Notes: generated by a model from the letters alone, not told the origin. DNA of 63,985 nucleotides, filler included, from Psammoneis japonica (GCA_008632985.1; 3 parts of 3 records of this genome joined end to end with filler, not necessarily neighbours in it), one strand, 5' to 3'; positions 27,721-53,688 are shown, counted from the first letter of the whole stretch. A program made the numbers and translations.

Positions 27721-27880
27721 ACCCACCATGGCGCTGCGCGAGGAACCTTCCGATTCACCCGACGCCGATGCCCCGTCTCATGGCAAAGATGATGAATGCG
27801 AACATGTTTTCACAAATGGATTGGGGATCACCGATGAGAACGAAAAGGCAAAACTCCGTGTCTAAAGCTTTGCCAATGAG

Positions 27881-30658
27881 TTGATGAAATTTCTTCAACT
27901 CCCACACCTTGGTCATTTGGTTGCACACAACAAAATTTTGCCACATGTCCCAGAAAAAAACAACAACCCGGAGCACTGGCTGTGTCGGCTCCATCGCGAT
28001 TGCGACACTCAGGAAAGGCACATGTCTTTTATGAACAATTTTTTGGCCTTGTCTCACTGCGAGACCACCAAGGATGACAACCCCCTCACCCATCCCGTTT
28101 TCGTGAAGAACCTCTTCGCCGAGAAAGGAAACGACTGGGAAGCTTTCATGGCCAATCAAATGACAACCGTCGAGAGGATTCAGTTGCACTCCAATCACGT
28201 TGACCAAAAGCTCGTGGCCACTGTCAAATGTCGTCGGCGCATTGACCCCGCCGATGATTCAGGAACGAGTGAACGTGCCCGTGATCGTTGCAAGGCAATG
28301 TGGCAAGCCCGACTTCGTGATTGGGCGTTGCACCACAAGAAAAAGGGGCTGGGCAGTGTGTTCCCATCCATCACTTGTGAAGCAAAGAAACACAAAGCCA
28401 CAGCCTCTCTCTGTTCCGATCAGGCCACCCCATCCAAGAGATCGACGCAGGAAACGCCGGTTCTTTCTTCCGACCCCCTGGAAGGGTTGCTCATGTTCGA
28501 GGAGCATCTGGCCAAGTCGCGCGAGGTTTGGCGGAAAAAAAAAGCCCAAGCACTTGTGTTGCCGCCTTTGCCCGACAATTTTGAAGAGGATGAACTTAAA
28601 CTCCGGTTCCCTGATTCATGCCCGCTGGCCAGCCCTGCAGACGTCAAGAGACACCACTCCCACCTTTCCATTTTGGAGAAAACCCCACCCATGGGAAGCC
28701 TGCCGCCCAACGCAGTGCGTCACATTCTCCTCCACACCACCGCTGATTGCTGCCTCGTTGATGATCTGCGCCAGTGCCATCACGGCTTCTACAATGGGTC
28801 TTTGCCCAGCGATCCGATGAAGGAGCCAGCAGTCACCACCACGTGCTCCACGGAAGCTTCGTCTCACTTGACGGACAAGGTTTCTTTTCTCAGGTTTTCC
28901 AACCCGATTTTTCAAAAACACTTTGGTCCTGTGCGGGCGAACATCCCGTCCCTTGTTAGAGCTGTTCTGCAGCATGGCAGCCCTGGCAAAGACAGGGATG
29001 GCCGCGGCAGCAAGATGCGTTGCCGCATCGAATTTGGTTGTTCCGGACAGAATTGCGTTGAGGCTCTCCCCGAAGAAGCGGAGGTTGGACCAGTCAGCAA
29101 ACCCGGTGCCACGCACGGGATGGATCTGTGGTCCAAGCTCCCCGAAGTTGTCCAACGAATGACAGCGGAGCTTCTCGACGCCATGCAAAGATGCGAGGAC
29201 GAGACAGAGGTCGCTGGTTTCCAAAACCAACGCCCTTTCAACGACGAAGCTCGTGACAGCCAATGTGCAGCTCAGCTCAGGGCTGCAATTGGCGCCTTTG
29301 TTTTTAGACGAGAAGACGTCACCCTGCAGTGCAAGTGTTTGTCTTTGCAAGCAGCAAAGCACAACCAAGGACCCAATTTGTGTGATCCGTCATTGCAGGA
29401 TGCAAATGATGACGGCGCACACAATGCTCCCGACCACCCAGCCGAGCCTCCGTCGTTGCAGGACGGGAATGAAGGAGAATCACCAACGTCAGCCGACGAC
29501 ACAGCCGAGCCACCTCTTGCTGACGAGAACGTCAATGATGACCGAAATGCACGTTCCCAGGACACACTGGGTCATGAAGACTCTGAAAATTGCACCAAAA
29601 AGGGCTGCTCAAAGACCAGCACCTTTTGCGCCAACATTGCTGACATTCGTGGACATGTGTGGTCCTTCAAGGCTGTCACCAATGGCAAAGGTAAAATCGG
29701 CAGATACATGGACTCCAAGTGCGACCACAAATGTCTAAAAGATCGAGTGGGAATGCACCTTTCCTGTCTTGATGCTTCATGCCAAGCTCAGATGATGCTG
29801 CACAAGGGTCCATGCCGTCCGTCAGAAGGCAAGCTCACACACAAAAACTTGATCGAATTCTTTCTAGATCGCCACTGTGAATTCATTGAAGAAAACATTG
29901 GGAGGGAGTCACGCAATGGTGACTCAGTCAAGCCACCCGTGGTGATGGCGCGTCGCATTGTTCATCCGTTCGCCATCGTGAGAGACTTCTTCCTCTCTCT
30001 TGCGGCGACTGCCATCTTTGGTCTGCTCCCCCACATCGGTGTCAGCAAAGCCATTCACTTGGCAATCATGGCGGGTTGCAAGACCGGTCACTTGCGATTT
30101 TGCCACATTCTCAGTGACATGCACGCGGTTGTCTCGGCACAAGACCCCATTCTCCACTGTCATCAAGAGGCGATGGCCAAGTTTGGAAGCATTGCTGGCG
30201 ATAGAAACAATGCTGGGCTTTCGTCTCCTGGCGTTGATTTCAAAAAGATCTTCATCAGCAAGTGCGGCAAGCGTTTGAGCTCTGTGATGGATGACATTGA
30301 ATGCGGGGTGCGTGAAGCCACATCTTGGATCAATGGCAATGTTGGAACCGAAGCTTTCAATCATGAATCTGTCGAAGCCAAATTCCAAGACATTGCCAGG
30401 AAATGGGAAGGAAAAGGCGCCGATTGTGCCGAGTTCCGATTCATGATCACTGCACAAATTTGCGTGCCAATTGGATTGGGTGTGAAGCCACACCCGGATC
30501 TTTGCAACCTTGTTTATCCTGTGTCGACCTCAGGCGCTGCGAAACAGATGCGCGTCATGGGGACACCCAAAGGCGCCCGCCCTGCCATCATGAGACGTCT
30601 GACAAACGATTTTGGTCTTCAAAAGTGTGGGTTGAATGGTGCCGAGGGATTGATGTGA
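27881..30658 (+). pseudogene. Large unknown ORF (925 aa), TpA-mutated
   Basis: Long frame nearly devoid of Tyr with excess Cys/His; contains HEDSEN (HxDxxN); no family securely recognised. Confidence 0.5.
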
Positions 30659-31682
30659 GACGTCAGTGACGAGCGATTCGACATGGGCATCTGCGACGTT
30701 TTCATGTGCGGGCAGGATCTTCATTTACTTTTCCCTGATGGTCGCCCCATGATTAAAAAGTTTGATTCTTACGAGTGGCACACCGTGGCTTTTACGCCGT
30801 TGGACGACTGGTCCCCCGCCACCGACTGGTGAGTTCATTCACACCATGATGACACCTGCATTTTTGGCCTGCATGCTGGTCAACACAGCATTTTGTTTTT
30901 TTGTTGTCCTGTCGCATTTCAGCGCCTGTGCCATTTGTTTGGCGCCCACAGTTGGAGACATTGCTTGCCTGGCTGCCGATCATTCCACCACGGGTGAGGA
31001 AAACGATGCAGGCGTAGTCCGTGACATGAGCGTCGACGAGACCAATTCTCAAACTTCTGAGTGCAGTGGATTGTCCCAGGAGATGGACGATTTTATCCGC
31101 AAAATGGAAATCAACTCCTCCAATGAGAGATTTCGCGACTGCCACGAATGACCCAGCAAGTTTCGAGTGTGTCTACAACAGGACAGGACCAGTCAGTTTG
31201 GTGTGATCGAAAACAGGCGTGTCTCACATTTTTTTTGATCGCGTCTGTCGGAATCACATCCCCCGACGCACGCGTAAACTCGAACTCACAATTTCCAAAC
31301 AAAACCACATTTTCTTTTTTGCGAAAGCCACACGCAGTTTTTCACCATGAGCGATCGTCGTCAAGCCTTCCTTTCCAGTGGAGAAGAAGTCAGTAGAATC
31401 AGCGACCGCCTCGCCGATCGGTTGGCCAGAATGAACACTTTGACCCAGCGGTTGTCCGAATCAACAACCGACACCGGAGCAGCCGCACAATCCGTCACTC
31501 AAACCACAGCAATCCGCACCCTTAGAGACGAAATTGGGGACACTCTCCAAGAAATCAGGCATTGTTTGGGCCGTCTAATGGCACGGGTGTCTCACCTGCG
31601 TCATGCAACAAATTACGGATTTTTGTCTGGTGAAGAGGACTCAGGTGAAGACCAACTTAGCTGCGAGGAAAGACAATTTTGG

Positions 31683-34600
31683 GAAGGTTCTTCGTTCGAA
31701 GAGAATTCGATTCACGAGGAATCATCCATCGGCAGTCGGCCGAGCAGGCCCAGTGAAGAATCATCCATCAGCAGTCGGCCAAGCAGGCCCAGTGAAGAAT
31801 CATCCTCTGCATCAATCAACAGTCGGTCAAGTCGGCCGAGCGAAGACAGTGACGAAGAATCCGAATCATCGGAACGTCATCATCTCACCCTTGCAGATTG
31901 TCACATTGGGGAACGTGTTCGAATGTCAAATCTTGTCAACACCGCAACCTCGATGCAATTGGCACTGTGTCGCACATGACTGCGTGACGACAACACATGC
32001 AAACCGACAATGGCAGATTGATTCAACGATCTGCAAATTACGTCGAGCCTGTGGAGACACAAGAAGACCGTTGAACAAGCCCACAATGACTCTTCTCTGC
32101 ATCATGTCTCTCGTTCAATTGGTGCCTTTATGCTGGCTTGAACTGCAGTCTTTTCATCGCTTTTGGCAACTGCACCCGTGGTGGATCTGGACGCGGGGCT
32201 CCATGCAATTCCTGCTCCGGGAGACACAAGACCACCGGAAAGCCCCTCAAGCATGTTTCTGCAATCGACACAAATGCAAGTCTACACATTTTTCTGTGAT
32301 TTTAACTTCTCATTTATCAGGTTGACATTTCGTTCACATCGGATTCCGCACTTGGGGCGGGGTGGCTGATTGGTCAAGCTGGGAAAGTTTCACCACCAGC
32401 CTGGCGCATGATGCCATGAAATTGCATGTTCCTGTTGGATCGCAGGCATGTTTCGATCCTTGGCGTCTCGCCACCTCTCTCAATCGCATGTTTTTTGCAC
32501 AGCGCTGTGCATGCATGGCAGCGAAAGCCGGGTCCACCGACCATGTCAGTGAGACCACCACCATGAACGCTGTCACCACGCCACACCAACACCGATTTGT
32601 GCTTTGCCGACACCTCAAGCGGCACTTGGTAAAGCTTCGAATTCTCTGGCGTGCTTCCGCACACACCACAGCAATTCAGTTTCAAGCCACCCACGCCCAG
32701 CCCCATGTCGCAACTGCGCGGAAGGATTGCACTTCGTTCGTGCAAGCGCTCAAGCATGGAGTGAGAGTGGTCGACATGTGGTTTTTGAACGGTTGGATCC
32801 AGCCCAACCTTGGCCTCCGGGGCTGCACAGAGAAACGCATTGGTGAATCTAGGTTCCCATGATTTGTCAGCACCACACTCTGTTGTCAAGAATTTCTTGA
32901 GGCAAGCCACGAAAAGTTCCTGTGCGCGATGGGATGCCTTTTCATTCCCGAAATAAAAGCAGGTGCCGTCGCCCCGTGGTGTCAGCCACCATGTCCCCCC
33001 ATTCGTGATGGTGTTCACATTTTTCCAAGCAAGTGTTTTTCGTCGCTTCTTTTCCTTTACTTCCTCTTCTTTCTTCTTTCCTTCCCTTTCTTTCTTCTTC
33101 TTCTTCCTCTCTTCCATGGTTTCTTTCCTTTTGCAACACCTCGCCTTGTCCAGGAATGCCTCGTGAATCTCGTCTACAGTGCTGTTCCCCTCGAAAAAGG
33201 AAGAAGGTTCTTCGTTCGAAGAGAATTCGATTCACGAGGAATCATCCGTCGGCAGTCGGCCGAGTGGGCCCAGTGAAGAATCATCCGTCAGCAGTCTTCC
33301 AAGCAGGCCCAGCGAAGAATCATCCTCTGCATCAATCAACAGTCGGTCAAGTCGGCCGAGCGAAGATGGTGACGAAGAATCCGAATCATCGGAACGTCAT
33401 CATCTTGCCCTTGCAGATTGTCACATTGGGGAACATGTTCGAATGTCAAATCTTGTCGAGCCCACATTAGACCCTGCAAACCAACGCTGCAACACTCGTT
33501 GCATCACTCGACAACACCGCAACCTCGATGCAATTGGCACTGTGTCGCACACAACCACGCGACGATTGCACGTGCAAACCGACAACGGCAGATTGATTCA
33601 ACGATCTGCAAGTTACGTCGAGCCCATGGAGACACAAGAAGACCGTTGAACAAGCCCGCAATGACTCTTCTCTGCATCATGTCTCTCGTTCAATTGGCAC
33701 CTTTATGCTGGCTCGAACTGCAGTCTTTTCATTGCTTTTGGCAACTGCACCCGTGGTGGATCTGGATGCGGGGCTCCGTGCAATTCCCACTCCGGAAGAC
33801 ACAAGACCACCGGAAAGCCCCTCAAGCATGTTTCTACAATCGACACAAATCCAAGTCTACACATTTTTCTGTGATTTTAACTTCTCATTTGTCAGGTTGA
33901 CATTTCGTTCACATCGGATTCCGCACTTGGGGCAGGGTGGCTAATTGGTCAAGCTGGGAAAGTGTCGCCATTGGCCTGGCACATGATGCTGTGAAATTGC
34001 ACGTTCCTGTTGGATCGCAGGCATGTTTCGATCCTTGGCGTCTCGCCACCTCTCTCAATCGCATGTTTTTCGCACAGCGCCATGCATGCATGGCAGCGAA
34101 AGCCAGGTCCACCGACCATGTCAGTGAGACCACCACCATGAACGCTGTCACCACGCCACACCAACACCGATTTGTGCTTTACCGACACCTCAAGCGGCAC
34201 TTGGCAAAGCTTCGAATTCTCTGGCGTGCTTCCGCACACACCATGGCAATTCAGTTTCAAGCCACCCACGCCCAGCCCCATGTTGCAACTGCACGGAAGG
34301 ATTGTGTTTCGTTCGTGCAAGCGCTCAAGCGTGGAGTGAGAGCAGTCGATGTGTGGTTTTTGAACGGTTGGATCCAGCCCAACCTTGGCCTCCGGGGCTG
34401 CACAGAGAAACGCATTGGTGAATCTAGGTTCCCATGATTTGTCAGCACCACACTCTGTTGTCAAGAATTTCTTGAGGCAAGCCACGAAAAGTTCCTGTGC
34501 GCGATGGGATGCCTTTTCATTCCTGAAATAAAAGCAGGTGCCGTCGCCCCGTGGTGTCAGCCACCATGTCCCCCCATTCGTGATGGTGTTCACATTTTTC

Positions 34601-34778
34601 CAAGCAAGTGTTTTTTGTCGCTTCTTTTCCTTTACTTCCTCTTCTTTCTTCTTTCCTTCCCTTTCTTTCTTCTTCTTCTTCCTCTCTTCCATGGTTTCTT
34701 TCCTTTCGCAATGCCTCGCCTTGTCCAGGAATGCCTCGTGAATCTCGTCTGCAGCGCTGTTCCCCTCAAAAAAGGAAG
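31683..34778. repeat. ~1.5-kb tandem duplication (31683-33202 / 33203-34778)
   Basis: Both units start gaaggttcttcgttcgaagagaattcg; the junction has gaag microhomology; copy 1 lacks ~58 bp near 31937. Confidence 0.92.
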
Positions 34779-35307
34779 CAGGTGGCATTCCCGCAAAATC
34801 CATCTGGCACACTTCCTTTGGCTCGAATGAATCATGCTTCAACAGAGGAATTTGCTGCTCACATGTTGCTTTGTGGATGCTGCGTGCCACCCGGGTCAAG
34901 CCCGTGCGATTTCTCGTAGTCCGAGCGAGACTGTCGAGCCAATTCTGTTTGCAGCATGAAGACCAAAGAGCCGCAATCTGGGTGCACTCCTCTGTGCACT
35001 CTTTGTCTGTGGGATCCCCCTCCAGATTGGTGCACAACAACGCCTTGACACCCTCGGCTCTCTTTTTATCGCCCCTGTGTGATGTGCATGCATCGTGCGT
35101 TTCGACGACAAAAAGAAACCCTCGCAGCTCATTGCATTTGTCCGACCCTTCGTTGTTGACGTGATGCTCGAACAATTCTTTGCAAGACGCTAAAATGGAA
35201 GAATTGACAGGCCTCCATTCTCCCGGCGGGCACCCGTTGTCAACGGATGCGTCATCATGGCTGGGACGGTTGCATGCCATCTCCCATGGTTGTTGTGAAT
35301 CCACCAC
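33949..35307 (-). pseudogene. 2OG-Fe(II) dioxygenase-like (PhyH-type) ORF; partial duplicate at 32374-33117
   Basis: C-terminal QKPHID ... VLVWRGDSVHGGG ... FRCHAC matches the HxD...H...R arrangement of double-stranded beta-helix dioxygenases. Confidence 0.55.
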
Positions 35308-35624
35308 TTTTTGGGGGCGTGCTGATGATGCACGATCCTCATCTCTTCAACCTGCGAGAAAATTCTACGGCTTTGCAATGCTGCAATCTCGTGGCTGCTT
35401 TTTTTTGTGATGACGTGTTTGTTGCTGCTTCCATCGTATGGTCTGCCCCCCACACCCACGCGATCGAGTAGATCGCATCGTCAAAATGACGTCGAGAAAA
35501 GTTCAATGTCCATTCCATGACGCAGTGCTCATGCATGACGGACTCACAGACGAGCGAGCGATGGATGATTGCACTGGTGGGTGGACATGCGGTCTGCCCC
35601 TGACTTTTTTCCGGACATTCTTCA

Positions 35625-35932
35625 ACCTGCGAGAAATGCCTGCGGCTGTGCAATGCCACAACACACCCTCAACAGACGGTTGCACTTACGTCTGAGTGCG
35701 CATTTTCCCGAATTTCTTCGACCAACGAGAAAAACCTGCGGCTTTGCAATGCCGCAATCCTGCGTGATTGGACCGCCAACTACGAGAAATGCCTGCGGCT
35801 GTGCAACACCGCAACACACCCTCGACGGATGGTTGCACTCACGTCTAAGTGCGCATTTTCCCGAATTTCTTCGACCAACGAGAAAAACCTGCGGCTTTGC
35901 AATGCCGCAATCCTGCGTGATTGGACCGCCAA
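35625..35932. repeat. Two ~153-bp tandem units
   Basis: cgagaaatgcctgcggctgtgcaa...gcattttcccgaatttcttcgaccaacgag repeated at ~35630 and ~35783. Confidence 0.75.
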
Positions 35933-36465
35933 CTTCGATTCCATCTCACACATTTCCCCCGCGCAAACCCACCAGGTGCAGCAATCTCCGCACTCCCTTC
36001 TGCGGCTGCTGCTTCCGAGAGAATCATCGTGTGGAACTGCGTGGGCCAAATCAGCACAGATTTGGCAAATCAGATCTGCCCGGCATGTTTTCCATGGGAA
36101 TCTGCCCACGCAAGAAATCTCCTGACTTTTGTGTTACGAGCGTCAGCCACCATGGCTGCTCGCGGTGGCATCCCCCCCCGCTGCATGGTGCTCCGTTTGT
36201 TCTTCTTTTGCAGCAGGATGAGTTTTGTGTCAACTGTCAATTTTTACCATCACGTCCCGCCCCCGCTTGTTGACGACAGCTGACGTTTCCCAAGCGTTTT
36301 TGCGAGCCACTCGTTTTCGGCGTCATGCTCCGCGCTCCATTTTTGGCCCTTTTTGGCCAAAGAAACATTTGTGAGTGCACCAAATAAAAAGCTTTTTTGC
36401 GATCTACTCGTTTTCGGCGAAATGGTTTGCGGTCTATTTTTTTGCGGTTTGAAGCCAAAGAAACA

Positions 36466-39400
36466 TCAAACAATTGTGAGTTCACGCACAAATCCTCCGT
36501 GTGTGATTTTTGAAACTAACTGAGTTCCCTGCTCCATCATTCTTGTCTGTTGCAATCCGTGCGGAGTGCCATTTTCGTAAATGGAGCTGTTTGGAGAATC
36601 ACTGTCCCCACTGACCGTGCTGTCCTCCTGCTCCGTTTCGCCCTCCGTGTCATGCCCTTCGTCATCTTTCTGAGTTGGACAACTCATCCCGCCATGAAGC
36701 TTGTCACATCCTCCGATGCTGTTTTCGTCCTCTGATGACGAGTGCACAACGTTCCCTTTGGGTTTCTTCCGCGTCGAATGCCAGTCTCCACTGTCCATCC
36801 GCCTGGACCCGTGCAAAATGTGGCAGCCATCATCCTCCGATGCTTCGCCAGTGCATCCCCCTTTGTTGCTCACATTGCCGTCGGTGTCGTCCTCTGACGA
36901 TGAGTGGAGACAATCGCTTCGGCATTTCTTTCTTTTTGCCCCGTGCCTGGACAGGTTCTGCGTCTCCCGTCCTTCGTCGATTCCTGTGCACCCTCCGCCG
37001 ATGCACATGTGTGCATCTTCCTCCACGTCGCCAGAATCCAACTCCACGTGCAAATCTGACGCACCCGAACTGCAGCTTTGGTCGGTGCAGGTGTCACCCA
37101 GCTGATTTGCTCTTTTTGCCCTTTGGCTGTTCGTGTTTGGTTGGTCATCACAACCATCGTTGGTTTCTTCATCGTCGCTGCAACACGAGGACTCGTCGGA
37201 GTCGGAGTGGGCGTCGTTCCTGGTTGCCAATCGAATGGCTCATTGTCTCTTGTCGAAAATGCGATGCACGTCTTCGTCGTCGGATTCATCGTCTGCCACC
37301 GGGTGCAATTGGCGAAGGACTTTCCGCATTGTTTTTCTCTCTGCACAACCAATCTGTGTGGCAATTTGACAAATGACATCCGCGGGGCTCATGTCGCACC
37401 CCTCCTTCCAACACGTGTCCAGGCACCCCGTGATTCTCTCAAGATCTGTTTTTTGCAGTTTGTCCTTGGCTTTTCCGCGATCTTTTCCGTTGTCCTCGGC
37501 CCCTTTCTTTCTCTTCGACAACGTCCCTGTGCTTGCTTCGCCTTGGCTGTTTGGACTTTGGACCTCGACAGCTTGACTGCTTTCGCTTTCTTCGGCCTCA
37601 TTTTCAGTCAATCTGTTGCCCTTTGCACCTTTGTCTTCTTCAGCGTCGTCCTGGCTGTTTCTCTCTTGTCTGTCTTTTCTTTTTTTCGGCCCAAAACATG
37701 TGGGTGTGTTGCCCTCCACCAAAAGGTGCAGCTGTTCAAGGATGTTTGGCATCGCGAGTTTGCCCTTGGAAGTTTTCCGCCTCAGTGCCAACACTGTCTG
37801 CTCTCCCTCGGACTCCAACCTCAACGACGGGTCCACCACCGTTTTGGACATTGTGTCTTGCACAAATGCTGCCAAAGCCGGCTGTGTCTTTTGGTCGTAG
37901 AAATCTTTCCCGCCAAGTGTCACTGGAACCTTGCTCCTGGGATGCAGCGCCATTCCGACGGATTCGAACATTTTCAATCGGTGGCATTTCCCCCTGAACA
38001 TGTTGTGGTGGAGACAGGCGAGTTTTTTGTCCCACCCGCAACCATGCTTCTCGACCAGTTCCGTTGTCATCAATGGCAACATCGAGCAAACTGCCCCAAG
38101 TGCGATCGCCTTCTCATTCTCTTTCTTGCTCCTGGAGCCCTGGAATTGCTTCGAAGATTCCCTCACCCTGCCTTGTGAGAATTGGAATGCCTCCCAGAAC
38201 AGCGTGACGCAGTCCGACATTGCCGCCGGGCACCAGCTGTGGGACTGTGGCAGTCGCTCTTCCGTGTTCCCTGTTTGGATGTGACGGGACATGAGCTCCA
38301 TCGCGTTGTTGATCTGTGACTTAGTCTGCGCAAAACAGTCGAGGAAATGCCATGATGATCTCACCCACTTGTCCGAGAGTGTGGTTTTCCGGGCTCGCAG
38401 CATCCCATCCTCGTTGCAATCGGCCTCCTCTGCTGCCCGACAATGGATTGGTTCCAGAGTCTGTCCAATCTCCTTCGCCATGCTAACTCTGTCTGCTCCC
38501 AGCTCCACCACCTCCCTCAGGAATTTGCCCCTGCTCACTCGCCCTCCCTCATTTGGATCGTTCCATGTTGTGTCAAATCCAAAATGCTTGATCGCGACAA
38601 GCAGCAGCCCCCCGCGCCTTTCGTTTGCCAGTTTCATCAACTGGTTGTGCCGGTGTTTGTATGCCCTCGGTCCGCTTTGCCTCGCCGTTTCTGGGTTTGG
38701 GACGTCAAACAGGCTCTCTGTCACCACACCCAGGTCGAAAAAGCCTTTTGGTTTCGTTGTGCAGTGTCGCAACAAGTCCATTGTTCTGCTCGCAATTGGT
38801 TGCAGAAAAACAGGTGAGTTTTGTTTGTTTGTTCCCTTTTTTTTTTGGCCACGTTCTTTTTGTTTTGCCTTGAAACTGTTTTACAGACTTGCCGGTTCGT
38901 CCCCTCGCATGCTGCGTTTTCCCATTCAACTCTCTCTGCTGACGCAATGGACCACTTGAACATGTTGCGCACTGCGTCGGCCAGCCCCTCCTGGTTGTTT
39001 CTCTTGGGCATGCACACCGTCACGCTTCGCCGGCTTGAATGGAATGCCCCCGCTGCTTGTTGGTGCCTGTTCATCACAAGATGTGGGATGCCTTGTGCCA
39101 TCTCTACCTGGTTTTCTCTGTTTGGTGTCGACAAACAACAATGATGTTGCAATGACGCCAGAATTTCGTTTGCCGATGTGACCGGTGAAACAAAGACCGG
39201 CGATGCCACCCGGGGCATCCCCCACAGAGCCAGGTTGGCCAACCCTTCATCATGGTCGACATGTCTTGAAACGAACGAAATCTCTCGTCCGAGGGGTGTT
39301 CTCTTGAATGCTTCCTTCAGGTTGCCATGCTCCGCGAATGCTTTGCACAGATCCATCGCTGTGACACCTCCGTCGTGCAGTTTCTGCATCACCAGCAGTG

Positions 39401-40574: not shown

Positions 40575-41560
40575 TGACTCTGTCATCCGAGAAATGGCCG
40601 CATGCCTCACCCAACAGCCCGGAATGGGAGCAAGTGGAGGGAGCTGGTTTTGGTTTCTTTTCTGATTGACTGTCTCCAAACACAAGATTTCCCGAGAGCC
40701 TTTGTTTCCACGCTCGCTGCTTTCCGCCGCTCTGTCATCCGAGAAACGGCCGCATGCCTCACCCAACAGCCCGGAATGGGAGCAAGTGGAGGGAGCTGGT
40801 TTTCGTTTCTTTTCTGATTGACTGTCTCCAAACACAAGACTTCCCGAGAGCCTTCATTTCCACGCTCGCTTCTTTCCGCCGCTCTGTCATCCGAGAAACG
40901 GCCACACACCTCACCCAACAGCCCGGAATGGGAGCAAGTGGAGGGAGTGGCTTTTTTTGTCTCTCTGTGATTGGCTTTGCGCGCAGCAACAACTTTTCCC
41001 ACAAGACTTCCCGAGAGCCTTCATTTCCACGCTCGCTGCTTTCCGCCGCTCTGTCGTCCGAGAAACGGCCACACACCTCACCCAACAGCCCGGAACGGGA
41101 GCAAGTGGAGGGAGTGGCTTTTTTCGTCTGTCTGTGATTGGCTTTGCGCACAGCAACAACTTTTCCCACAAGAATTCCCGAGAGCCTTCATTTCCACGCT
41201 CGCTGCTTTCCGCCGCTCTGTCATCCAAGAAACGGCCACACACCTCACCCAACAGCCCGGAACGGGAGCAAGTGGAGGGAGTGGCTTTTTTCGTCTCTCT
41301 GTGATTGGCTTTGCACGCAGCAACGACTTTTCCTGCGTGCTTTGTCGTCCAAGTGGCGACCACAAACCTCACCCAACAGCCCGGAATGGGAGCAAGTGGA
41401 GGGAGTGGTTTTTCGCATCTTTGTGATTGGCTCACCGTGCAGACACGACTTTCCTTTTCGAGACTTGTCATCCGGGAGACGCCTCACCCAACAGACCCCA
41501 ATGGGGAGCAAGTGGAGGGAGCGCCTGTTCGTGTCCTTGTGATTGACTCCCCCAACACCC
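40575..41560. repeat. Tandem array, 7 variable units (~152,152,167,167,124,115 bp spacing)
   Basis: Core ctcacccaacagcccggaa(t/c)gggagcaagtggaggga at ~40606, 40758, 40910, 41077, 41244, 41368, 41483. Confidence 0.9.
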
Positions 41561-41719
41561 TTTGTCACCCGAGAAACTGCCATGCACCCTCACCCTTTGC
41601 ATCTCGTCGTTGACACTTCCTGTCAAGATTGACCCCCCATTCCTGGTTTGTTCTGTAGACCGCTGTTTATTCACATCTCTCTCTCTCTTCGTTGATGTCA
41701 CCAATCTCACGGCCTCGCA

Positions 41720-44700
41720 ATGGTTGCCGTCCAATGCTGCCCCTTCGCTGGCTTGGTTTGCCTCGGTTGCAACAACAAGGCCGGTTGGGACAGAGATTTG
41801 GTCCACAGTGTCAAAAGACACACAGAAAAATTTTGCGGTGCCTGCAGGTTGCCATCCAAAGTCAGCCGATGCCAGCTTCTTGTTAAAGGCGCCCTTGCCG
41901 ACCTCAAGTCACTTGCCAAGACTGTCGCGTTTCTCTCCGACGAACAGTTCCACACACATTTGGTGAACACCTGCACCGTGCCCGTGAGTGGTGCGGTGCA
42001 TTGTCCCGACTGCAAGGCGATTGGGCCATCTGACAGAAAAATGAAAACACTTCACCAAGCAGGTAGAAAAAGGGGTTGCAGCCGACGATGCCAATGCGTC
42101 CAATGTTGCAAGTCTAAGGTTTTGGACTCTCACATGATTCCAAAACGTTTTGCACCAGCCGACACGGCTCCCTGGTTCAAGCGTTGCGTCCTTTGTGCAA
42201 GAGAGCGGGGAATCGGTTTCCCTTCATCTCTTGTGCCAACGACAACCGTTCCACACGAACCACCCACGGCGCCTGTTTCTTCTACTTGTCGCCCAACTTG
42301 GCACTTTTCTCAGCAGTCTGTGTCACCCTGCATTTTCCAGTCATTCGAAAACGGCATCATGTCACTGCCCTGCCATGACGAAGTGCACATCAACAATTTT
42401 GTGTTGGAACTCGAGCGACTCACCCTCCCCTGCGTTGCGCAACCTGAGCTCATGCAGTTCGCCACTGAAGTTTGCGGCTCGATGGCTCTCCGTCACTTCG
42501 ACGGATCATTCACTGCGATGGCCCGTTGTTTCGTGGAAATGACAACTGAGCCAAACAGGTCATGGGAGAAAAACATGATCGATGCGGACTGCCGATTCAT
42601 GGAGCGTGCATTCGATCAACTCGAATCTGTGAACCCCTCATTGTTGATTGATGCACAGAAGGTTGGAAAGTGTGACAACAACGCGTCTTGCAGGAGGACC
42701 AACGTTGCCTTGAAAGACTTCTTGGATGGACTTGAGCGAGTTGTCGATGAAGATGGAGCTGTGACCCACCTGCCGACTGATGAAGACAAAGATCTCTTGT
42801 TCGACCAGGTCTCCTCTCTTGCTGAAAATTTCGACACAGCTGGTGCCATGCCAAGGAAGCTGGGAAAGTTGTCCGTTGACACTCGAAAACGACATGCCTC
42901 CCATTTTTGTGGGATGTTGCTCTTCCTTGCGAGAAGCGCCTCTGAGTTTATGGACCAGACAAGCACGTCCATGATTTCCCAATGCGCTGAGCTGTTCCAC
43001 GCGGGTTCCTGCGAAACAACGGAAGGTCAGGAATTGGCTCTTGGCGCCATTGCGTCTCTCCTTCTGACGTGTTTGCAGGTCGACTCAGAGGTCAGTTACA
43101 GCAGCATGGTCATCAAGTCACATTCCATGCCCGCTGTGTGTTCAATGGCCAGGTCCATCAATGTTTGTCTCGGCAAGGACAAGATTTGTTGTTTCCGTCT
43201 AGAAAGTCCCAAAAAAACTGCATGGCATTTGCTCGGCTTTGCTGCACACGCTGAGGGCAGGATGCGTTGCATGCATGGTGCATGCTTCCTTGTCCGGTGA
43301 TTCGTCTCTGCAGAGGTGTTCACCGGACGCTTCACGTTTGGTGCGCTCGTGTCCCATCATGGAGCTGGCAAACATCGGCCGCCTGTGCAAGACATGCGAA
43401 AGGTTTACATCTCGAGGCAGCGAGAAAGCGCAGCACAAAGTCATTGATGGTGCGGACTCATTCGTCATCAAACACGCAACAGAGTCTTCTTCGTCCGTCA
43501 CAATGGCCCAGCCCCCAATCAAAACTGCTCTGCACAAGTCCTGTTTGGAGTTGGAGGAGAAGATGAAGCGATTGCTTGTTCCAGCGCTTTCTGGGAAGGA
43601 GGTTGAGGTGTTTGACCGCGATGGTGCAAACCTGGACAAAATCAAGCTAGCAGGCGAATTCCTTGATGCCGTTTTGCGTGGTTTGTTCAGCAATTTGGCC
43701 AGTTGCTGTGACTGCGGTGCCTGCCGGTTGTGCACCGAGACTGTCGAGCAGATGAATCGCGTCAGTGGTCGGGCCCCCCAAGGAATCTGAGCCATGCGCA
43801 AGCACCATGGCTGCCTGTTTCTTCTTCCGTCTGCCCAATGGCAAGGTTGCCAGTTTGGATTCATTTCAGCTTGCATTGCTTTTTGCGGAATCTCTTCTCG
43901 ACAACAGCTCCCTCCGGCAGCTCTACGAGGAGGAAGACTTCAAGATCAAATCCTTGTTTGGATCTCAATTTTTTTTTGCCATGCGCGGCTCTGGTCGGCC
44001 ATGGGAAGTTGTCATGTTTCAGTCAGGCGTGACCAACGACACCCAGACCAGCCCGTTCCGGCCCTCAGTTTTGGCCGGCTGGGGCAGGGGTGGTGAGATG
44101 CTCAGCAAACTGTGCTGCAGTTTCGTTCATGGGGAAAGTTGGTGGAGATGGAGTAGACACCGGGTTCTTGGGCCTGCCGGAGATTTCGGCTCAGTTGTTG
44201 ATGGTCTTCCTTTCCATTCATTGTTCTGCTGTTGCAATCCATCTCGGCCGTGAACTCGGTCTTGACATTGGACGCAAACATCTGCTGCAATTCTTCAAGG
44301 TGCTGGAGTTGACTGCTGGGGGGAAGCCACACTGCAAGCCGTGGCCTGACCTCGAGGACACATTTTGTCGCCGTCTCAAGCGGCTTTTTTGTCTGGAGCG
44401 TGGTTCGATGACACTCGGTTCCTTCCGACAGGTTTTCTGTGCTGTTTCTAAGCGCCAAGACGAAATGATGGAAGAAATCGGCCATGTCAGGCAGGGCCAA
44501 AAAGAAACTCTCCCAACATGTGTCCCGCGTGCAAGCAGGGGGCTTCAACCACACTGTCAGCACCCACTTTCGCAACTGCAATTTCTCTGTCCAAATGGGC
44601 AATCAATTGATCGACCCAGATCAGCGCTCGTTCAACGACCAAATGGATGATTTCCACCACGACTGCATTGGAGCTTCACTCCTCGTTCCTGTTCGATCTT

Positions 44701-47671
44701 TGGAGCAATCCAATCACATGGGTCAAGATCAATGGAGGCGACCCCATTTGATGACAGACTCTCAGTGTCTTGGATTCCAGAGAGCCCATGCTGCCATCCA
44801 TTGCGAAATGAAATCTCCGATTCAGCGCATGACACTAACTGAGCCGGTCTCAATGATGCGCGATGCTCTCATCGTAGCCCCTTGTGGCTCGGGGAAGACT
44901 GGCACAATTGCCGCATCAAGCACGCATGCAAGGTTCAGCCATCTTTCAAGGCTGGGCAGAGAGGGCATGCAGCAATGCTTCGAACAGCACCAAGTGGACT
45001 CTGATGTTTTGGATGACCCCGCCGTGCAAGATTTTCTGGAACACTGTGCGACTGACGAATTCCCACCTCCTCCCCACGGTTTTGCCCTTTTGTGTTGTCC
45101 CTCATCGTGCCGCGATGGATGACACAATCTCCAATTTAAACAAAATGCAGTTTGTCACAGCCACTGGTTGGCGTGCTGCGGATGAAATGGAGGCCTTGCT
45201 GCAGCGTTCCGCATTCGCTGGTGATTTAAACTCGGAAAGCGTGGCAGGTTTCGACGTCCTGGTTCCAACAGTGGCGAAGGCTTGCTCCGACGAAGCGCGT
45301 CGATTTGTCGAAGATTGTTGCCGCGCAAAAGTGCTTTGCGCTGTTGTCACGGATGAACCACACATGTTTGTGATGGAGTTGGAGCACATGACATGCCTTG
45401 TCACATTCGTCAACCTCATGTCCAGATTCTCGCACGTGCGCCACCCGGGTGCCAAGGTTTCATCTTAGCGGCAGCAGCCCTGCCTGCTTGTCCACGAGCA
45501 TCGCGACAGTGACAGGATCCTCCTTTGGGAGCGCACCACCAACATGGTTGAACAGTTGTACGATCGGCCACTCTCGCTGCACGGGGCACGACGATCCCGA
45601 AGAGATTCTCGCGGAATGTGCTCAGAAGAGAGGCATTTGGCGACCCAGTGACACCGTCCCATCAAATGTCGCACATGCTGTCTGCAAGGTTCCATCCACC
45701 AATGACCACCGGCATGCTGAGTGCGCCCTGGCACGGTTGAAGCCTTTGCTTGCACAAAAGAACGACTCTGGGTGCCAACCAGACAAGATCCTCATTGTCT
45801 GCAAAACAAAAAACTTGGCACGTCGCGTTCACCTGGTTTTCGGTTCATCCTCTGTCATGCTGCTCGGCAGGGACAGAGACACCCCCGATGACCAGATGCA
45901 GGTCTTTCAAGAGAAATGGATCAATGGCAGCGTGCAGGTTGGTGTCGGCACATCAGTTCTTGCCCAGTCCATCAACCAGGGGAGGTGCAACCTCGTTGTT
46001 TGCCTGGACATGTTGCACAACGCTGTGCTCTGCATGCAGGCATCCGCTCGTGGCGGGCACCGCGGCCAGCCCTCGCTTAGCTTGTTTCTCTGCCGAGAGC
46101 AACAACACAGGCGATGCCTGTCGCCGAAGCCTTTTGACTTCAACGAGCTGCGCATGAGCGGCGTTGACATCGACGACCCCTCATTGAGCCATTCTCTTGG
46201 CACTGAGTCGCTGAGTGGCTTCATCAAAGCCGACGTTTCCCAACACATTTGCAGACGTGTCCACCTCAAGAGAGAGATGGACAAGGCTTTTGACAAATCG
46301 GACGCACATGTGACCAGATTTGAATCTTGTGCAGATCGCGACTGGTGCTGCAATCTTTGTTCTGCCAAGGTGGTTGATGTCATGTCTGTGATGGGTTTTC
46401 ATGGTTACGAAGACCAAGATGCAGACACAATGGATGTTGAATCCGATCCCTTCTTGCCCTGCACAGCCACCCCCATCGCCCTCGATGATGTTGCGTCACT
46501 TGACGGCGATGACGCAAGCACGACGGAGGTGGCACCAAGTCCCTTCTCTCCATCCACCGCCTCTTCCGATGACAGATCATCACCCCCTGATGAATGTCCG
46601 CCAGCCGTCACTCCTCATGATCACTTTTTGACTGCCAACGGGGCTGACTTTGAGGCCGAATTGTGCAATCTTGTTGACTCCGCATCGACAAACAACTCTC
46701 TCCTTGCACCTGACACTGCCAACACAGATGGCTTGCCAGGAGGGGAGGAAACGGCAGCCATGGCTGTTGCTTTGTCCGAATCAAACGGCTCAAACTCTCC
46801 TGGCAATTGTTTTTCCAAGTTGCCTGGCACCAATTTCCCCAGGGGCCGATCCCGTTCTCGGGTTGTTTCAAAAATCAAGCGGCGACAAAAGCCCGATCTT
46901 TTTACCCAGATGCCACAAGAAACCCAGCCCAGGACTCGTTCCTGCAGCCGCTCGAGGGATCGCACAGATCGTGCGATGAGACAAGTTCCGTTGTTTTCCA
47001 CCCGTGGCAACGCGCCTTCCAACAGAGCTGCGGCAGATCCCGCTGTTGCACGAGACACTTTTCCCAAACACAGCTGCCCCGTGCGCGCATTTGTCACCGG
47101 ATCTGACAGACGGCTGCTCCACAGCTGTCCCTGGCACTTTCAAATGGGCCTTCCTCCAGTTCCACGCCATCGAGGGCTGCTTGCAGAGAATCCCTTTGGC
47201 AGCCCCGAGTGCCGGGTTTCCTTCTGCAAGGCACTCAGAGGATGCACAGCCAAATCATTCTGTTTTAAGTGCGGCAACGATGGCATTTCCTGCTCATCGA
47301 AAGCCTTCGATATCAACACCTGCCGCTTTGGTGGTCTCCAAAGCGGCCAAGGTTGTTGTTGTTTTTGCGGCATTTGTCATGACGTGGGGGATGCACATGT
47401 GCGAGAAGCTTGTCTTGGAAATCGCCTTTGGGGGCTTGTTGTGTGGGCTTTCAGGAGTCCCTCCGGGCACAAGCTGGTTGCTGACAGGTGGATCCGCTCT
47501 GGAGCGAAAGGACTCCTTGGGTTTCCGTTTCCTGATCTGTGTTTGTTTTGTGACGTTTCGCCAGAAAAATGGAAGAAGGCTCTGAAGTTTCTCGTTGACA
47601 ATCGTCACGTTAACTGCTGTTTTTGGAGGTGCGTCCTCCATGTCCTCCACGAGCACTCCTTTCGCATTTGA
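41720..47671 (+). pseudogene. Telomere-linked-helicase-like (RecQ family) gene, ~2000 codons, frameshifted
   Basis: N-terminal LVCLGC...VKRH zinc-finger-like segment; motif I LIVAPCGSGKT, II VVTDEPH, III LSGS, IV ILIVCKTK, V VGTSVLAQSIN, VI QASARGGHRGQ; RecQ Zn module CRRVHL...CCNLC. Confidence 0.75.
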
Positions 47672-48264
47672 GCATTGGACTTGTTCATTTCGCGCAAACT
47701 GCTGCACCTGGGACGCCGCCCCACCCCTTCTCTGCCAGCGTTCTCTTTTTGTTTGTTTTTGTTGTCAATGTTAAATGCACTTTTCGAGAACACGCATTTC
47801 CTCTAACACTTGTTCTGCAAGAGCCCCGCCACTGCCGCGTCACATTCTCGCGCGCACTGCGTCACGTTCTCGCGCGTTTTGGGCGCGCGGCAACAACCAC
47901 ACAGCACACACAAACAACACCGCCAAGACGCAGTTGCACACACACACCGTCGAACTGCATCCTGCGCTGCTGCCGACACCCCACCCCTTCTCGACTTGTT
48001 TGCAATTGACGCTGCATTTGTGAGTGCAATGATCTTTGTGGAACTGTTGGTCTCCTGCGATGCGGACTGGCAGCAATGATGGCATTGTTGCCCCATCTAA
48101 TTGGCTGTTCCCCTTTTTTTGTCCACTGCAATTTCCATTCAAATGGGCAATTCCCGCATCTGTTCGGATTTTTTTGTGCAGATTGCAGCAACATGTGCGC
48201 CAGACGCCCCACCACCGTGACGCACCACAAGTTTCTTCCCAGCTGCTTTTTGCACCCCGGTTGT

Positions 48265-49050
48265 CTTGTTGCTGCATCTCTGCATCTTCTGACAATTGTG
48301 CAGCAACGGACGAGTGGGACTGCCAGTCCGTCGCCCAGCAACATTCCGCCAATCGGTTTTCAACAACAAGACCTGGAGAACTGGCTGGGGCACCCTCGTT
48401 GTGTTGTGCAGTTTGACGAAAAAAGGCGCGGCTGATCTTGGTTGCGTTGATGGACGGCGCAAGCGCATTCTGCGTGTTGACATTGGCAACAACATGTTCT
48501 CCCCAGCTGCATGTCGGCGGCTTTGCTCTTGTCTGTGTCTGTCTCGCTGCTGCATCTCTGCGTCTTTTGACAATTGCACAGCAACGGACGAGTGGGACTG
48601 CCAGTCCGTCACCCAGTGACATTCCGCTGATCGGTTTTCAATGACAAGACCTCGAGAACTGGCTGGGGCACCCTCGTTGTGTTGTGCAGTTTGACGAAAA
48701 AAGGCGCGGCTGATCTTGGTTGCGTTGACAGACGGCGCAAGCGCATTCTGCTTGTTGACATTGGCAACAATGTGTTCTCCCCAGCTGCACATTGGCGGCT
48801 TTTGCTCTCGTCTGTGTCTGTCTCGCTGCTGCGTCTCTGCGTCTTCTGACAATTGCACAGCAACGGACGAGTGGGACTGCCAGTCCATCGCCCAGTGACA
48901 TTCCGCCAATCGGTTTTCAACAATGAGACCTGGAGAGCTGGCTGGGGCACCCTCGTTGTGTTGTGCAGTTTGACGAAAAAAAGGCGCGGTTGTTCTCGGT
49001 TTCGTTGATGGACGGCGCAAGTGCATCTGCTTGTTGACATTGGTGATGAC
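48265..49050. repeat. Three ~278-bp tandem units
   Basis: gcaacggacgagtgggactgccagtcc at 48303, 48581, 48860. Confidence 0.9.
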
Positions 49051-49112
49051 ACATTCTCCCAAGTCACACATCGGCGGCTCTGCTTCGTCGTTGTTGTCTC
49101 GTTGCCATTGGC

Positions 49113-50522
49113 TTGGAATGTCGGTCGACAATGGAATGGATGCTCTTGCCGATGCGGCTGTTCTTGCATCGCAAGAACAGGACGAGGAAAGCCGGTCGTC
49201 ACAGGAGGAGAGCAACCAGAATCACGGGGGGGGGGGGAAATGATGTTTCACAGCAGGAAGAGGAAGATGTGGATTCCACAACAAGGGACAATGATGTTTC
49301 ACAGGAGAAGGAAGATGTGGATTCTACCCCAAGATCACCCAAATCCAACGCGGGTGACATTGAAAACATTCCCACCAAGCTCAGGGATTTCGTGACTCTC
49401 GTCAACGGTGACATGGCAAAGCAGGTGTGGGAAAACGTCTTTCGCCATGTTGGTTTGTACGATGTTGTTGACCCAAGCACAGAAACAAAATCACTGTGTA
49501 AATTGGCCAACTCTGGGCTCCGGCAAAATTCCGGGAAAAGGCACGTTTTGGTGCATCACAACCAGAAGGGATTGTCACCTGACATCTGCAAACTTCTCAG
49601 TGAATTTGAACAAGAAAACGAAGGCGACATCGTCGACTTGTTGAGCAACAAACACACCCACATTTTGGCAGTTTGCGCAGTTGACGGCGATCGTTGTGTC
49701 ATCGCGACCGATCTCGTGGCGGTGTTGTTGTGTCGGTGCATTCAAAAAGTGCCAGTCACAATTGTTGACTGCATTCGAGTCGACAAGAACGCCCAGGTCC
49801 ACAATTGTGGGATGTGCCCTTTCCTCATCGGCGTGGCTCAATCTGTCGGCTGCACAGTTGTTGGCACATGGGACACGATGCTGCATTGTCAAGTGAAGCT
49901 CAAGCAATGCCACTGTGAAACTCTGGGTTTCGAGGATGTCACAGATGAAATGAACGAGGAACCGTCTTTGGAAAGAGTGAGGCACCATTGGAATTGGGAG
50001 GATTTGATCAAAGAGGACGGAGAGAACACCCATGCACTCATGGTGAAACGCAAAGTCACCACATGCTCTGCAAGAATTGCGCTGCCCATCTCGCACACAG
50101 AGGATGCTTTTCAACACAATGCAAAATGGTGGCGGGACCGTGATGGGTTCTGGAGCAGCAACAAGGAACCATCAGAGCTGCACAGAGATTTGGTGGAAAA
50201 AGAGAAAGACGTGATTTGCAAATCCTCGGCAGTGATGGTTGGCAGGACGACACTGGACTCTTTCAAACACTCATGGGAAATGTTCATGGATGGTCGACAA
50301 TGGCTTGACATTGGGAGGTGCGTTTGCGAATCCTGCGAAATTTGCATTGGTGGAGTCGACAAGGCCAACAACATCAAGTCACATTTCGAGACAACGGCTT
50401 TGTTTGCAGCAAGCGTCCACTTCTCCTGTCGAACAAGTGAGTTGGCAAACGATGAAACATGGGATGGAGCGACGTGTCGATCAAGCGATTCGGAGTTGGC
50501 CCAAAGGGCCAAATGTGTGTGA
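49113..50522 (+). pseudogene. GNAT-acetyltransferase-like ORF
   Basis: TIVDCIRV...NCGMCPFLI...QCHCETLGF; reading C/H back to Y gives IVDYIRV and YYETLGF, resembling GNAT motifs A/B. Confidence 0.5.
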
Positions 50523-51575
50523 GGCCTTTTTGACTCGACCAAGGAGTCGGTTGCTGACAACCGGAAGTGTGTTCTCAACCCCAAGCATTGCCAGCGCAGT
50601 CGGAGCAATTCGGATGAAGACATGGAGAATGAAATGCCTTTGGGTGGCGACGGACCTCCCTGTCAGCATCTTTCAGCAATGTGCTTGAAGTGCAACACCT
50701 GCGACTTGTCCGTGCACATCGATTGCAACCAGGAAAGTCAACGAGGCCTTTCTCCAGCAGCAACTTTGTTTTCTGAGCTTGCAGGCCCTTGCTGCGACCA
50801 TGCAATGTGCGCTCGGGGCAAGCACCCCATTTGCGCTGCACAAAACAGAAGTGCAGTGCATGAGTTGCTGGTTGGTGCAGCACAAGAAGACAGAGAAACT
50901 CTGAAGGACCCAGAGAGACGCCGTGCTGCTTTGAACAAAAAGGATTTCTTTCAGCAGCCTTTGCAGCACATTGCCATTTGGTGCAAAGAAGCGGAAAAGC
51001 TGCGCTGGTGCAAGACAAACAGGTCAATTTGACAACACCGTTTCACACAGCTGGCCAAGGAGGCAGTGCTCCACCGAAAACTCTCTGCCAGTGGAAACAA
51101 GAGAAAAAAGAAGAAACCGAAACCCAAACAGGTGGATGGCGGCCTGGAGGTGGAAGAGTCTGATTCGGAGCCGGAAGATCAAGGTCTCCTCGTTTCACGA
51201 CGAAGAGTGTTGTCTGCTGTCGATGAGAAACACCAAGATCTTCATTTTGAAGCGAGGAAGTTGTGCGAGGATGCAAAAGACTTGGGACAGATGCGTCATC
51301 TTGAATGGGTTGATCCGGCGTCACGGCCGGATCACAGTGAGACACCAGGTGATGCCGTCCAGTGCGAAGGGCGAGTTTCATTTGGATGGTTTGAAGTTCT
51401 CAAACACGGCAGAACATTGGCTGACGATTGTTTTGGAGCGGACAATGACAAGATCATCGGAGGAGGGAGGGTGAACCTTGTTCGAAACGCCGTTGAGGAA
51501 GCCAAGCGGAGACCCAACACAAAAGTCTCTCTGAGCTGCAGAGAAAAGTGACAGATTGGCAACAGAGCTGATCAC

Positions 51576-52436
51576 GTGACAAACAAAGGTCATGTTCACA
51601 AAGTGAGGCGGCTGACAGATGGGGAGCGAGCCAAGGGGCTTGCAGCCAATGATGATTTTGAAGGTCCTGCGGGAACGCCAGAATTCATGGGGGTTGGCAC
51701 AAGGAACAAACCCCGCCATTGTGCCATGGAATGGGCAAGAGCCAATTTTCAGAAGCGATGTCCTGCAGTGTGCAAGGCCATGTGTGATTTGAAACCAGGC
51801 AAAGCATGGCGCAACCTGCCGGAGGGCAACGTGTCAGACAAAAGCGAGCTGGAATTTCCTGCATCGGGGCCACGAGTCAAACATCAACAAGGCGAGAAAG
51901 ACGCTTGTGTGCTCTCTAGCCTGGCCAGTGTCCTCAGTTGCATGGGAGACGAAAGGATGGAGCAACATGTTGTGAAGTGCAAGGAGCATTTTTGCAGGTT
52001 GGAGATCACCAACAACAAATGGCTGGAGTTCGCTGTCGGCATGTTGTTGGGGCAAAAGCAGAAAATGTGCCCTCCAACGGCCACATCAATGAAGTGGCAT
52101 GAATGCAAGAGGCGTCAGAAGATGGCAGCTGGCAAGAATGGATTCTTTGATTTGACCACACACATTGCAGATGACGTCGTTCTTTGTCGGTTGAAAAACA
52201 ACCATTGCACTGCTTTGCACAGTGGGTGGATCTTCGACTCCAATCATGAATTCACTCTTCCTGCCAAAGACATTCAGTGGTTGAATTGGTGTCTTGGGAA
52301 TGAAACGTTTGAAATGGGTGCACTGGTGGAAGACCCAAAACCAGCAGCGGAGGAAGCAGTGTTTTTCCAACTGCCGAAGGCTGTCCAAACAAGGTTGCGC
52401 AAACGCAAGAGGCCAGCTGATGTGTCTGCATTTTAG
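51576..52436 (+). pseudogene. Papain-fold cysteine peptidase-like domain (possibly the C-terminus of a long gene starting near 49113)
   Basis: QQGEKDACVLSSLASVL (Q..C), NNHCTAL (H), WIFDSN (D/N). Confidence 0.55.
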
Positions 52437-52489
52437 CTCTAAAAAGGGACGCTGGTGCGTTCATGCTTTTTTGTGGTTGGGGTCATGCG

Positions 52490-53612: not shown

Positions 53613-53688
53613 GGGTCAGGGTTGGGGTCAGGGTTGGGGTTGGGGTTGGGGTTGGGGTTGGGGTCAGGGCCAGGGTTGGGGTTGGGGT
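53611..53688 (+). repeat. Degenerate internal telomeric tract
   Basis: Hexamers TTGGGG, TCAGGG, CCAGGG; no intact TTAGGG. Confidence 0.85.

Follow-up and report, generated by a model that had tools for sequence, protein, structure and literature searches.

A tyrosine recombinase–RecQ gene and its divergent partner in a candidate composite element near a chromosome end of the diatom Psammoneis japonica

We describe a block of large genes beside a telomere of the diatom Psammoneis japonica (GCA_008632985.1). The block lies in a stretch of 63,985 nucleotides, filler included (the window), in which separate contigs are joined. At its core are 2 divergent genes: F, predicted to encode a tyrosine recombinase (YR) fused to a RecQ-type helicase, and E, its head-to-head partner. 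Judged by sequence comparison, this pair recurs in a distant organism. We propose, tentatively and at slightly less than an even chance, that genes A to F (at least 20 kb) form a dead composite unit that was once moved by its recombinase with the help of RecQ, and whose genes were gathered from terminal-inverted-repeat (TIR) transposons and from the host. The core is real; the movement of the unit is inferred, and its ends were not found.

A recombinase–helicase fusion gene

Gene F aligns end to end (41903-47662) with a family of proteins of about 1,800-2,200 aa, for which we collected 25 representatives from metagenomes and public runs. Its rear half finds RecQ/WRN as top PDB matches (E 7e-14) and matches DEAD, Helicase_C, and, weakly, RecQ_Zn_bind in Pfam, with recQ_fam below the cut-off. 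The fold of the middle domain was modelled on an intact relative, encoded by metagenome contig L095 and 24-34% identical, rather than on the window protein. The AlphaFold2 (AF2) model has a predicted local distance difference test score (pLDDT) of 76.8. In a wide structure search with this model, recombinases occupy ranks 1-8 at Z 7.3-8.9 (Xer, IntI, XerD, Cre, XerH, and phage integrase), and ranks 1-16 hold YRs or TopIB only; the alignment to IntI covers 263 residues at Z 8.8 with a root-mean-square deviation of 6.3. R763, K808, R906, and H938 are invariant in 12/12 homologues, and the catalytic Tyr stands nine residues past the His in 10 of these 12, the other 2 having His or Cys; the His of HxxR is not retained in the family. 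Because the Z values are modest, it is the uniform ranking together with the residue pattern that makes the case, and on this modelling the middle domain has a tyrosine recombinase fold with an R-K-R-H-Y set in the family. An earlier annotation of the same DNA, the sequence-only reading, had guessed at a recombinase or RecQ protein, and both parts of the guess hold.

In the window copy the nucleophile position reads TGC (Cys) at 44577; the catalytic Tyr is gone, lost to the hypermutation of TpA dinucleotides that is described below. The homologues with His or Cys at this position are P0004 and P0015, of which P0004 has further Tyr-to-Cys/His changes; both may come from other TpA-erasing organisms. 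F contains six frame changes, which we do not accept as genuine decay, since five are one-base differences missing from short-read contigs (a single sequencing run, possibly the assembly's own sample) and are read as assembly errors; the change near 43780 is probably real. The resulting seven segments are free of stops. At the N-terminus, the first motif fits both published C2H2 patterns of telomere-linked helicases (TLHs) and the second is C2HC-like, with a strict fit to one TLH C2H2 pattern in 3/12 homologues. F gave no OrsD match in a search that had no working control, and there is no DUF3435 match among its Pfam results. Neither F nor E has an unmutated host copy.

The partner gene E

What the sequence-only reading listed as a divergent unknown gene is a single gene, E, carrying an intron; it has no family match in Pfam, PHROG, and other profile searches. 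On metagenome contig L095, which is 10.6 kb long and free of TpA erasure, the two halves of E are both present (E 1e-34 and 1e-35, 24-28% identity), head-to-head with the F homologue of that contig (24-34% aa), and in P0035 they form one 1,043-aa protein. In the window and in L095 the intron interrupts an identical phase-2 Arg codon; the donor is GC in the window and GT in L095. An in-frame TGA at 37240 precedes an acidic tail (36466-37239). The 167-bp array between the two genes stops about 160 bp before the probable start of F. Within the assembly, E occurs only on contigs C413 (the block), C400, and C197 (5/5 candidates). At window 39887-40061, differing short-read contigs occur at about 2x local depth, a hint of more copies of the region upstream of E that the assembly search does not show.

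Extent and conserved order of the block

The sequence-only reading proposed here a candidate cargo-carrying subtelomeric element of more than 25 kb. Long open reading frames (ORFs) are present where it placed them, and they are separated, as it said, by tandem arrays, whose periods are 153, 167, 278, and 187. It also reported that reverse transcriptase, DDE transposase, and capsid genes are lacking, and Pfam gave no match to any of them for 19 block ORFs and a telomere-side fragment; tblastn with 10 transposon-derived queries, five transposase pieces among them, found no match in the contig at E<=1e-3. The proposed limits do not stand. Window 27721-55223 is the entire contig G000:C413, and position 27721 is that contig's first base, directly after an N44-TTAATTAATTAA-N44 spacer, so the left coordinate is a contig edge and not an element terminus. 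The measured span is 24.7 kb, most of one contig, and its right limit lies about 2.2 kb short of the (TTAGGG)n telomere.

Parts of the block recur elsewhere in the assembly. C400 matches window 27722-38277 (A, B, one copy of a 2-oxoglutarate (2OG) dioxygenase-like gene, and E) in the same order and orientation at 65-87% nucleotide identity, and C197 matches window 39405-41778 (the start of E, the 167-bp array, and the start of F) at 74-76%. Gene order is conserved for A-B-2OG-E on C400, for E-array-F on C197, and for divergent E and F on L095; termini, an empty site, and a second full copy were not found in these loci. On C400, about 230 bp lie between the start of A and unrelated repeats, with no TIR, and neither C285 nor the flank on C400 yielded an element end. 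A CACTG-type motif occurs 1.5 kb from the C197 fragment, lacking a partner end and set in a flank unlike the window or C400.

Between copies, the ratio of nonsynonymous to synonymous change (dN/dS) is 0.47 for A, 0.40 for 2OG, 0.36 and 0.32 for E, and 0.46 for the E tail. Third-position changes outnumber second-position changes 1.7-2.3x for A, 2OG, and E, with no third-position excess in the E tail. Young-copy controls gave dN/dS values of 0.56, 0.71, and 0.59, plus one of 0.44, and a position ratio of 0.7-1.0 in the three controls at 0.56-0.71. Given these control values, the signal of protein-level constraint between copies is suggestive only.

Genes shared with transposons and the host

Some genes of the block also occur independently of it: A- and G-family genes reside inside two dispersed families of TIR transposons, and a 2OG homologue sits among host genes. 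Independent occurrence of the ORFs was what the sequence-only reading had named as refuting its single element, and to this extent that reading is refuted in part.

Compared with C400, gene A is missing some 420 bp from its 5' part, the deletion lying at 27863/27864. Its family has at least 93 matches in the assembly (49/298 candidates scored), and 8 dispersed loci that we compared share about 42% aa identity with window A. Seven of these could be mapped to their ends: they are 8-12-kb elements with CATCA..TGATG ends in 7/7 and a 2-bp target-site duplication (TSD) that is exact in 4/7 and one transition off in 2. Ends of this kind with a 2-bp TSD are the PlavakaB signature in the available text of PMC12730594. 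In one copy, a PlavakaB-type element at G000:C108:195527-207653 (L045, L046), gene A is still faced by a long transposase-like region, which gives a weak Pfam match to Plavaka that falls below cut-off (E 0.0075); most of this region is missing from the six other end-mapped copies. The last 20 kb of G000:C108 also contain a distant A-like fragment (28-35% aa) about 4 kb from the telomere. Gene A has no Pfam, NCBIfam, PHROG, or PDB match; it may resemble TET-like or aGPT-like proteins. A suspected aGPT-PPlase likeness between A and a 529-aa ORF of the G family was set aside, as BLAST did not support it (E >= 0.75).

The 2OG-Fe dioxygenase-like gene of the sequence-only reading is present, with the correction that it is partly copied within a 1.58-kb tandem duplication. 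HxD, H, and R are kept in 4/4 copies, including the unmutated C214 homologue among host genes (G000:C214:16906-17514; L106:7906-8514), which shares 37% aa with the block gene. This homologue, the closest unmutated relative found, adjoins other dioxygenase-like ORFs. The gene has no Pfam or PDB match, and its identity as a dioxygenase is a motif-level assignment.

The G family has 85 matches, and its 11 closest loci form an 18.2-kb CACTA-like family, exemplified by G000:C34:109553-127799 (L019, L020, L061), whose end-mapped copies are about 95-97% identical. Seven loci with both ends read show CACTG..CAGTG, the 2-bp TSD being exact in 6/7, and the family also encodes a transposase-like ORF and an aminotransferase III gene. 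In the window it is represented by the 278-bp array and G alone; its other ORFs have no match in the contig. A, E, and F are absent from all 11 closest G loci, which counts against G belonging to the unit, and the adjacency of G and F is seen in the window alone. A short-read contig bridges the end of F to the 278-bp array, so this join is physically real, though unique. Elsewhere, C197:121879-130411 and C3:92119-100612 (both G000) share another multi-gene repeat at 82-85% that includes a distant G-like gene.

The C-terminus of G has a papain-like set (Q 25/27; C 24/27, never H or Y; H 25/25; D 24/25), and from these alignments the predicted Q-C-H-D set is genuine and not Tyr-derived. Its N-terminus may resemble GNAT, at the level of motifs. 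G has no Pfam, NCBIfam, or PDB profile match for peptidase or GNAT. The suggestion that the block carries chromatin- or DNA-modifying cargo survives as motifs only: Pfam, NCBIfam, PHROG, and PDB gave no match, and the structure model of G failed to fold (pLDDT 28).

Erasure of TpA

TpA is nearly erased from the block, with observed/expected values of 0.00-0.15 in each kb from 28 to 54 kb and 0.3-0.8 in host-gene parts. The loss is also present at window 9-12, 15-16, 22-24, 25-27, and 55.4-57.5 kb. All 21 loci profiled were TpA-depleted in their repeat part. Since other repeats share this loss genome-wide, it does not delimit an element. We rejected it as a boundary, and the uniform mutation that had been read as the sign of a single element is instead the general behavior of repeats in this genome.

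Erasure also reshapes coding sequence. TAA and TAG occur at 1.6 and 1.2 per kb in the block and at 5.5-10.8 per kb in host regions, a scarcity that makes open frames easy to come by. Tyr makes up 0-0.4% of residues in the block versus 1.7-3.3%, and of the 40 Tyr in an intact F homologue, the window has Cys/His opposite 26 and Tyr opposite 2. With stop codons removed and Tyr turned into Cys or His, ORF length and Cys content are weak evidence here. The Cys-rich segments noted earlier consist in large part of former Tyr, though a few Cys/His are fixed across copies, and as zinc domains we mostly rejected them, many columns mixing C and H across copies.

A counterpart is known from Bigelowiella natans, where TpA hypermutation affects integrated viral DNA (10.64898/2026.01.13.699255, in its available part). 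The common feature is T/A to C/G change at TpA; unlike the viral DNA described there, the sequence erased here includes transposons, arrays, and relic telomere tracts.

The chromosome end and other features

Between the block and the present telomere lie an array, relic telomere tracts, and a piece of gene A (Table 1). The relic tracts have TTAGGG rewritten to TTGGGG/TCAGGG, and C108 has a comparable relic tract ahead of its telomere. Most of the 333-bp A piece is deleted from window A; its final 52 bp are identical to 27864-27915. Breakage and healing, at least twice, is the best explanation for the chromosome end beyond the block. A long array of 187-bp units begins another contig (G000:C374:1-3025). 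Few ends are assembled: 3 telomeric contigs are among the matches listed (100 of 170).

The rest of the window includes ordinary host genes, SHQ1 and dihydrouridine synthase by Pfam (12822-14444 and 60101-61372). The repeat at 15013-25267, present in three copies, is LTR-retrotransposon-like (LTR, long terminal repeat): it has an integrase/protease ORF (23280-24890) and a 364-aa ORF that is duplicated. A partly TpA-depleted 471-aa ORF at 8213-9829 lies between 41-nt inverted repeats and is possibly a small TIR element.

Table 1. Features of the block and of the chromosome end, in window coordinates
Feature	Position	Strand	Remarks
Artificial contig spacer N44-TTAATTAATTAA-N44	27621-27720		Separate contigs joined in window
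Gene A (ORF 27866-30658; 925 aa in the sequence-only reading)	27721-30658	+	HxD motif; PlavakaB accessory-gene family
Gene B, small ORF	31278-31979	+	C400 counterpart, 40% aa over 126 aa
1.58-kb tandem duplication, 92%	31683-34783
Second 2OG copy, 5'-truncated	32374-33231	-	Inside the duplication
2OG-Fe(II) dioxygenase-like gene	33949-35346	-	HxD...H...R
153-bp tandem repeat, 2 copies	35630-35938
Gene E, ~1,040-aa family	36466-39872	-	Divergent partner of F
E intron	about 38786-38892	-	TpA-erased donor
167-bp tandem array	40578-41558		Between E and F; also on C197
Gene F, ~2,000 codons	41696-47671	+	Zn-finger-like N-terminus, YR, RecQ-type helicase, Cys-rich C-terminus
F tyrosine recombinase domain (predicted)	about 42870-44600	+
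F RecQ-type helicase	about 44850-46390	+
278-bp tandem array	48262-49105		Common to CACTA-like G-family element
Gene G, one ~1,160-aa gene	49050-52436	+	3 TGA stops; 78% nt to CACTA-like accessory gene
187-bp array, 6 copies	52495-53615		Also at start of contig C374
Two TpA-erased relic telomere tracts	53611-53689, 54015-54097	+
333-bp fragment from the 5' part of gene A	53687-54019	+ (block orientation)	Between relic tracts
Retroelement-like high-copy repeat end	54097-54658	-	Cut by present telomere; 96-97% to at least 28 copies
Present telomere (TTAGGG)n	54660-55223	+	Not TpA-erased

Proposed history and alternatives

In our proposal, the intact unit would have been excised and re-integrated by the YR, probably as a circle, on the Crypton model (PMC3212892, available text). 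RecQ would unwind recombination or telomeric intermediates, and the product of gene E may serve as an accessory factor. TIR transposons would have been the source of gene A, perhaps also of G, and the host that of the 2OG gene, and G with its 278-bp array would be late cargo or a neighboring remnant.

Several observations weigh against this proposal. C400 ends inside E and C197 covers merely 1.9 kb; the link from A to F is thus transitive, and no second locus has both A and F. Termini, direct repeats, TIRs, and an empty site were found neither in the contig nor in related loci. F is single-copy in the assembly (10/10 candidates scored), and at two further assembled ends, C108 and C297, the terminal 20 kb contain no E, F, or G. 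The dN/dS test is weak, with a transition-biased method, one control at 0.44, and overlapping intervals. The evidence for the recombinase fold comes from a relative 24-34% identical and not from the window copy, its Z-scores barely clear 8, the level at which the tool advises caution, and no match to the L095 model came from Foldseek. Outside the assembly, the context for E–F is one contig, L095, scans of viral contigs, prokaryote genomes, and other metagenomes having produced no further one, and within its 10.6 kb L095 has no A, 2OG, G, or telomere repeat.

The likeliest alternative, though we consider it rather unlikely, is a subtelomeric patchwork: a TLH-like two-gene E–F module, serving some telomere-related role, amid PlavakaB/CACTA-like remnants, with pieces spread to C400 and C197 by ectopic recombination or segmental duplication instead of the YR. 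Such an origin suits A and G as accessory genes of dispersed TIR families, the host homologue of 2OG, the missing termini, an end that was repeatedly broken and healed while capturing sequence, and the absence of cargo from L095. Yet A, B, 2OG, and E in the window have neither TIR nor transposase and keep their order on C400, and the third-position excess between copies and the YR residue set, conserved across a deep family, also speak against it.

Less probable again, and unlikely in our judgment, is a single unit that takes in the whole stretch, with G and both the 278-bp and the 187-bp array, as far as the relic telomere tract, the A fragment being the stump of a second head-to-tail unit. 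The physically real join of F to the array would follow from it, as would the divergence of G from its TIR family (78%, like that of the other genes from their second copies, 74-87%) and its dN/dS of 0.33-0.39. The A fragment has the orientation of the block and is identical to window A at 52/52 positions, and arrays of Fusarium TLH regions are bounded by telomere repeats (10.1101/2024.02.27.582403, available part). Against this, in none of 11 close G loci does G have E, F, or this A subfamily nearby, it has 3 stops where F has none, and the A fragment begins inside A rather than at a unit end.

A giant Plavaka/CACTA-type element that captured E–F, with transposase and TIRs left of the contig edge or lost, seems very improbable. 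The two flanking genes are each members of accessory-gene families of such elements, a CACTG-type motif lies near the C197 fragment, and giant multi-gene Plavakas are known (10.1101/2025.02.11.637652, available part). However, the contig has no transposase match, the start of A on C400 is some 230 bp from unrelated repeats without a TIR, and the C197 motif is unpaired in a flank unlike the window or C400. The remnant of an integrated DNA virus, which would share the Bigelowiella mutation signature (10.64898/2026.01.13.699255, in part) and large intron-poor genes, is scarcely credible, as Pfam and PHROGs gave no capsid, ATPase, or polymerase match, E has a conserved spliceosomal-type intron, and the signature also marks ordinary transposons here.

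Relation to known systems

The region that we read as a composite unit resembles the fungal TLH region in its layout. In the available text of the fungal and Monosiga TLH papers (PMC1635262, 10.1101/2024.02.27.582403), the shared features are a RecQ helicase and a middle domain that is long and conserved, with N-terminal motifs that in F are Zn-finger-like. F points its 3' end at the telomere, with 5.9 kb to the first relic tract and 7.0 kb to the present telomere, compared with 2.2-5.5 kb for the Magnaporthe oryzae TLH; the gap between the end of a tandem array and the gene start is about 160 bp for F and 181 bp in M. oryzae; and TLH regions likewise have further arrays and interstitial telomere tracts downstream of the helicase gene. 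Unlike TLHs, F is present in one copy and absent from two other assembled ends, and the block adds a partner gene, conserved and divergently oriented, together with cargo of transposon type. The word "recombinase" occurs in neither paper as available (PMC1635262, 10.1101/2024.02.27.582403), and a literature search, incomplete in subscription papers, found no publication that links a tyrosine recombinase with TLH or RecQ; one paper that covers both Cryptons and RecQ deals with each apart. We regard the conserved, intron-bearing partner gene E and the linkage of a YR–RecQ gene to cargo as additions.

Cryptons, including CryptonS of oomycetes and a diatom, offer a second comparison (PMC3212892, available text): a eukaryotic YR is their presumed mobilizer, they lack TIRs or long repeats, and some carry a papain-like C48 peptidase, as G has a papain-like set. 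Unlike Cryptons, F is about 2,000 aa long and includes a helicase, a word with 0 occurrences in that text. Crypton ends have 4-6-bp terminal direct repeats (PMC3212892, same text); none could be located for the block, whose left end is off the contig and of which no full second copy was found. PlavakaB and EnSpm/CACTA (CMCT) elements, as far as described in the available parts of PMC12730594 and 10.1101/2025.02.11.637652, supply gene families of the block; unlike them, the contig has no TIRs, TSD, or transposase, and its left end is missing.

The block also invites comparison with a group outside the algae, and there the architecture differs: the YR is internal and fused to RecQ, and F has no DUF3435 match. 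The group is the Starships of fungi, large YR-associated units with variable cargo.

Implications

It is possible, if doubtful, that F and E represent a hitherto undescribed class of large DNA elements in eukaryotes, mobilized by a YR–RecQ fusion, favoring chromosome ends, and swapping DNA- or chromatin-modifying cargo with Plavaka/CACTA elements. If true, this class would be an algal counterpart of Starships, and telomere-linked helicase regions would be recast as selfish elements. Annotation can also be misled by TpA erasure, as this locus shows, with stops lost, Tyr turned into Cys/His, and a splice donor and a catalytic Tyr changed. A recombinase domain with a conserved catalytic set, a fixed partner, and transposon-derived cargo permit a direct test of what TLHs do. 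Should such units prove to move, algae would possess giant cargo-carrying recombinase elements.

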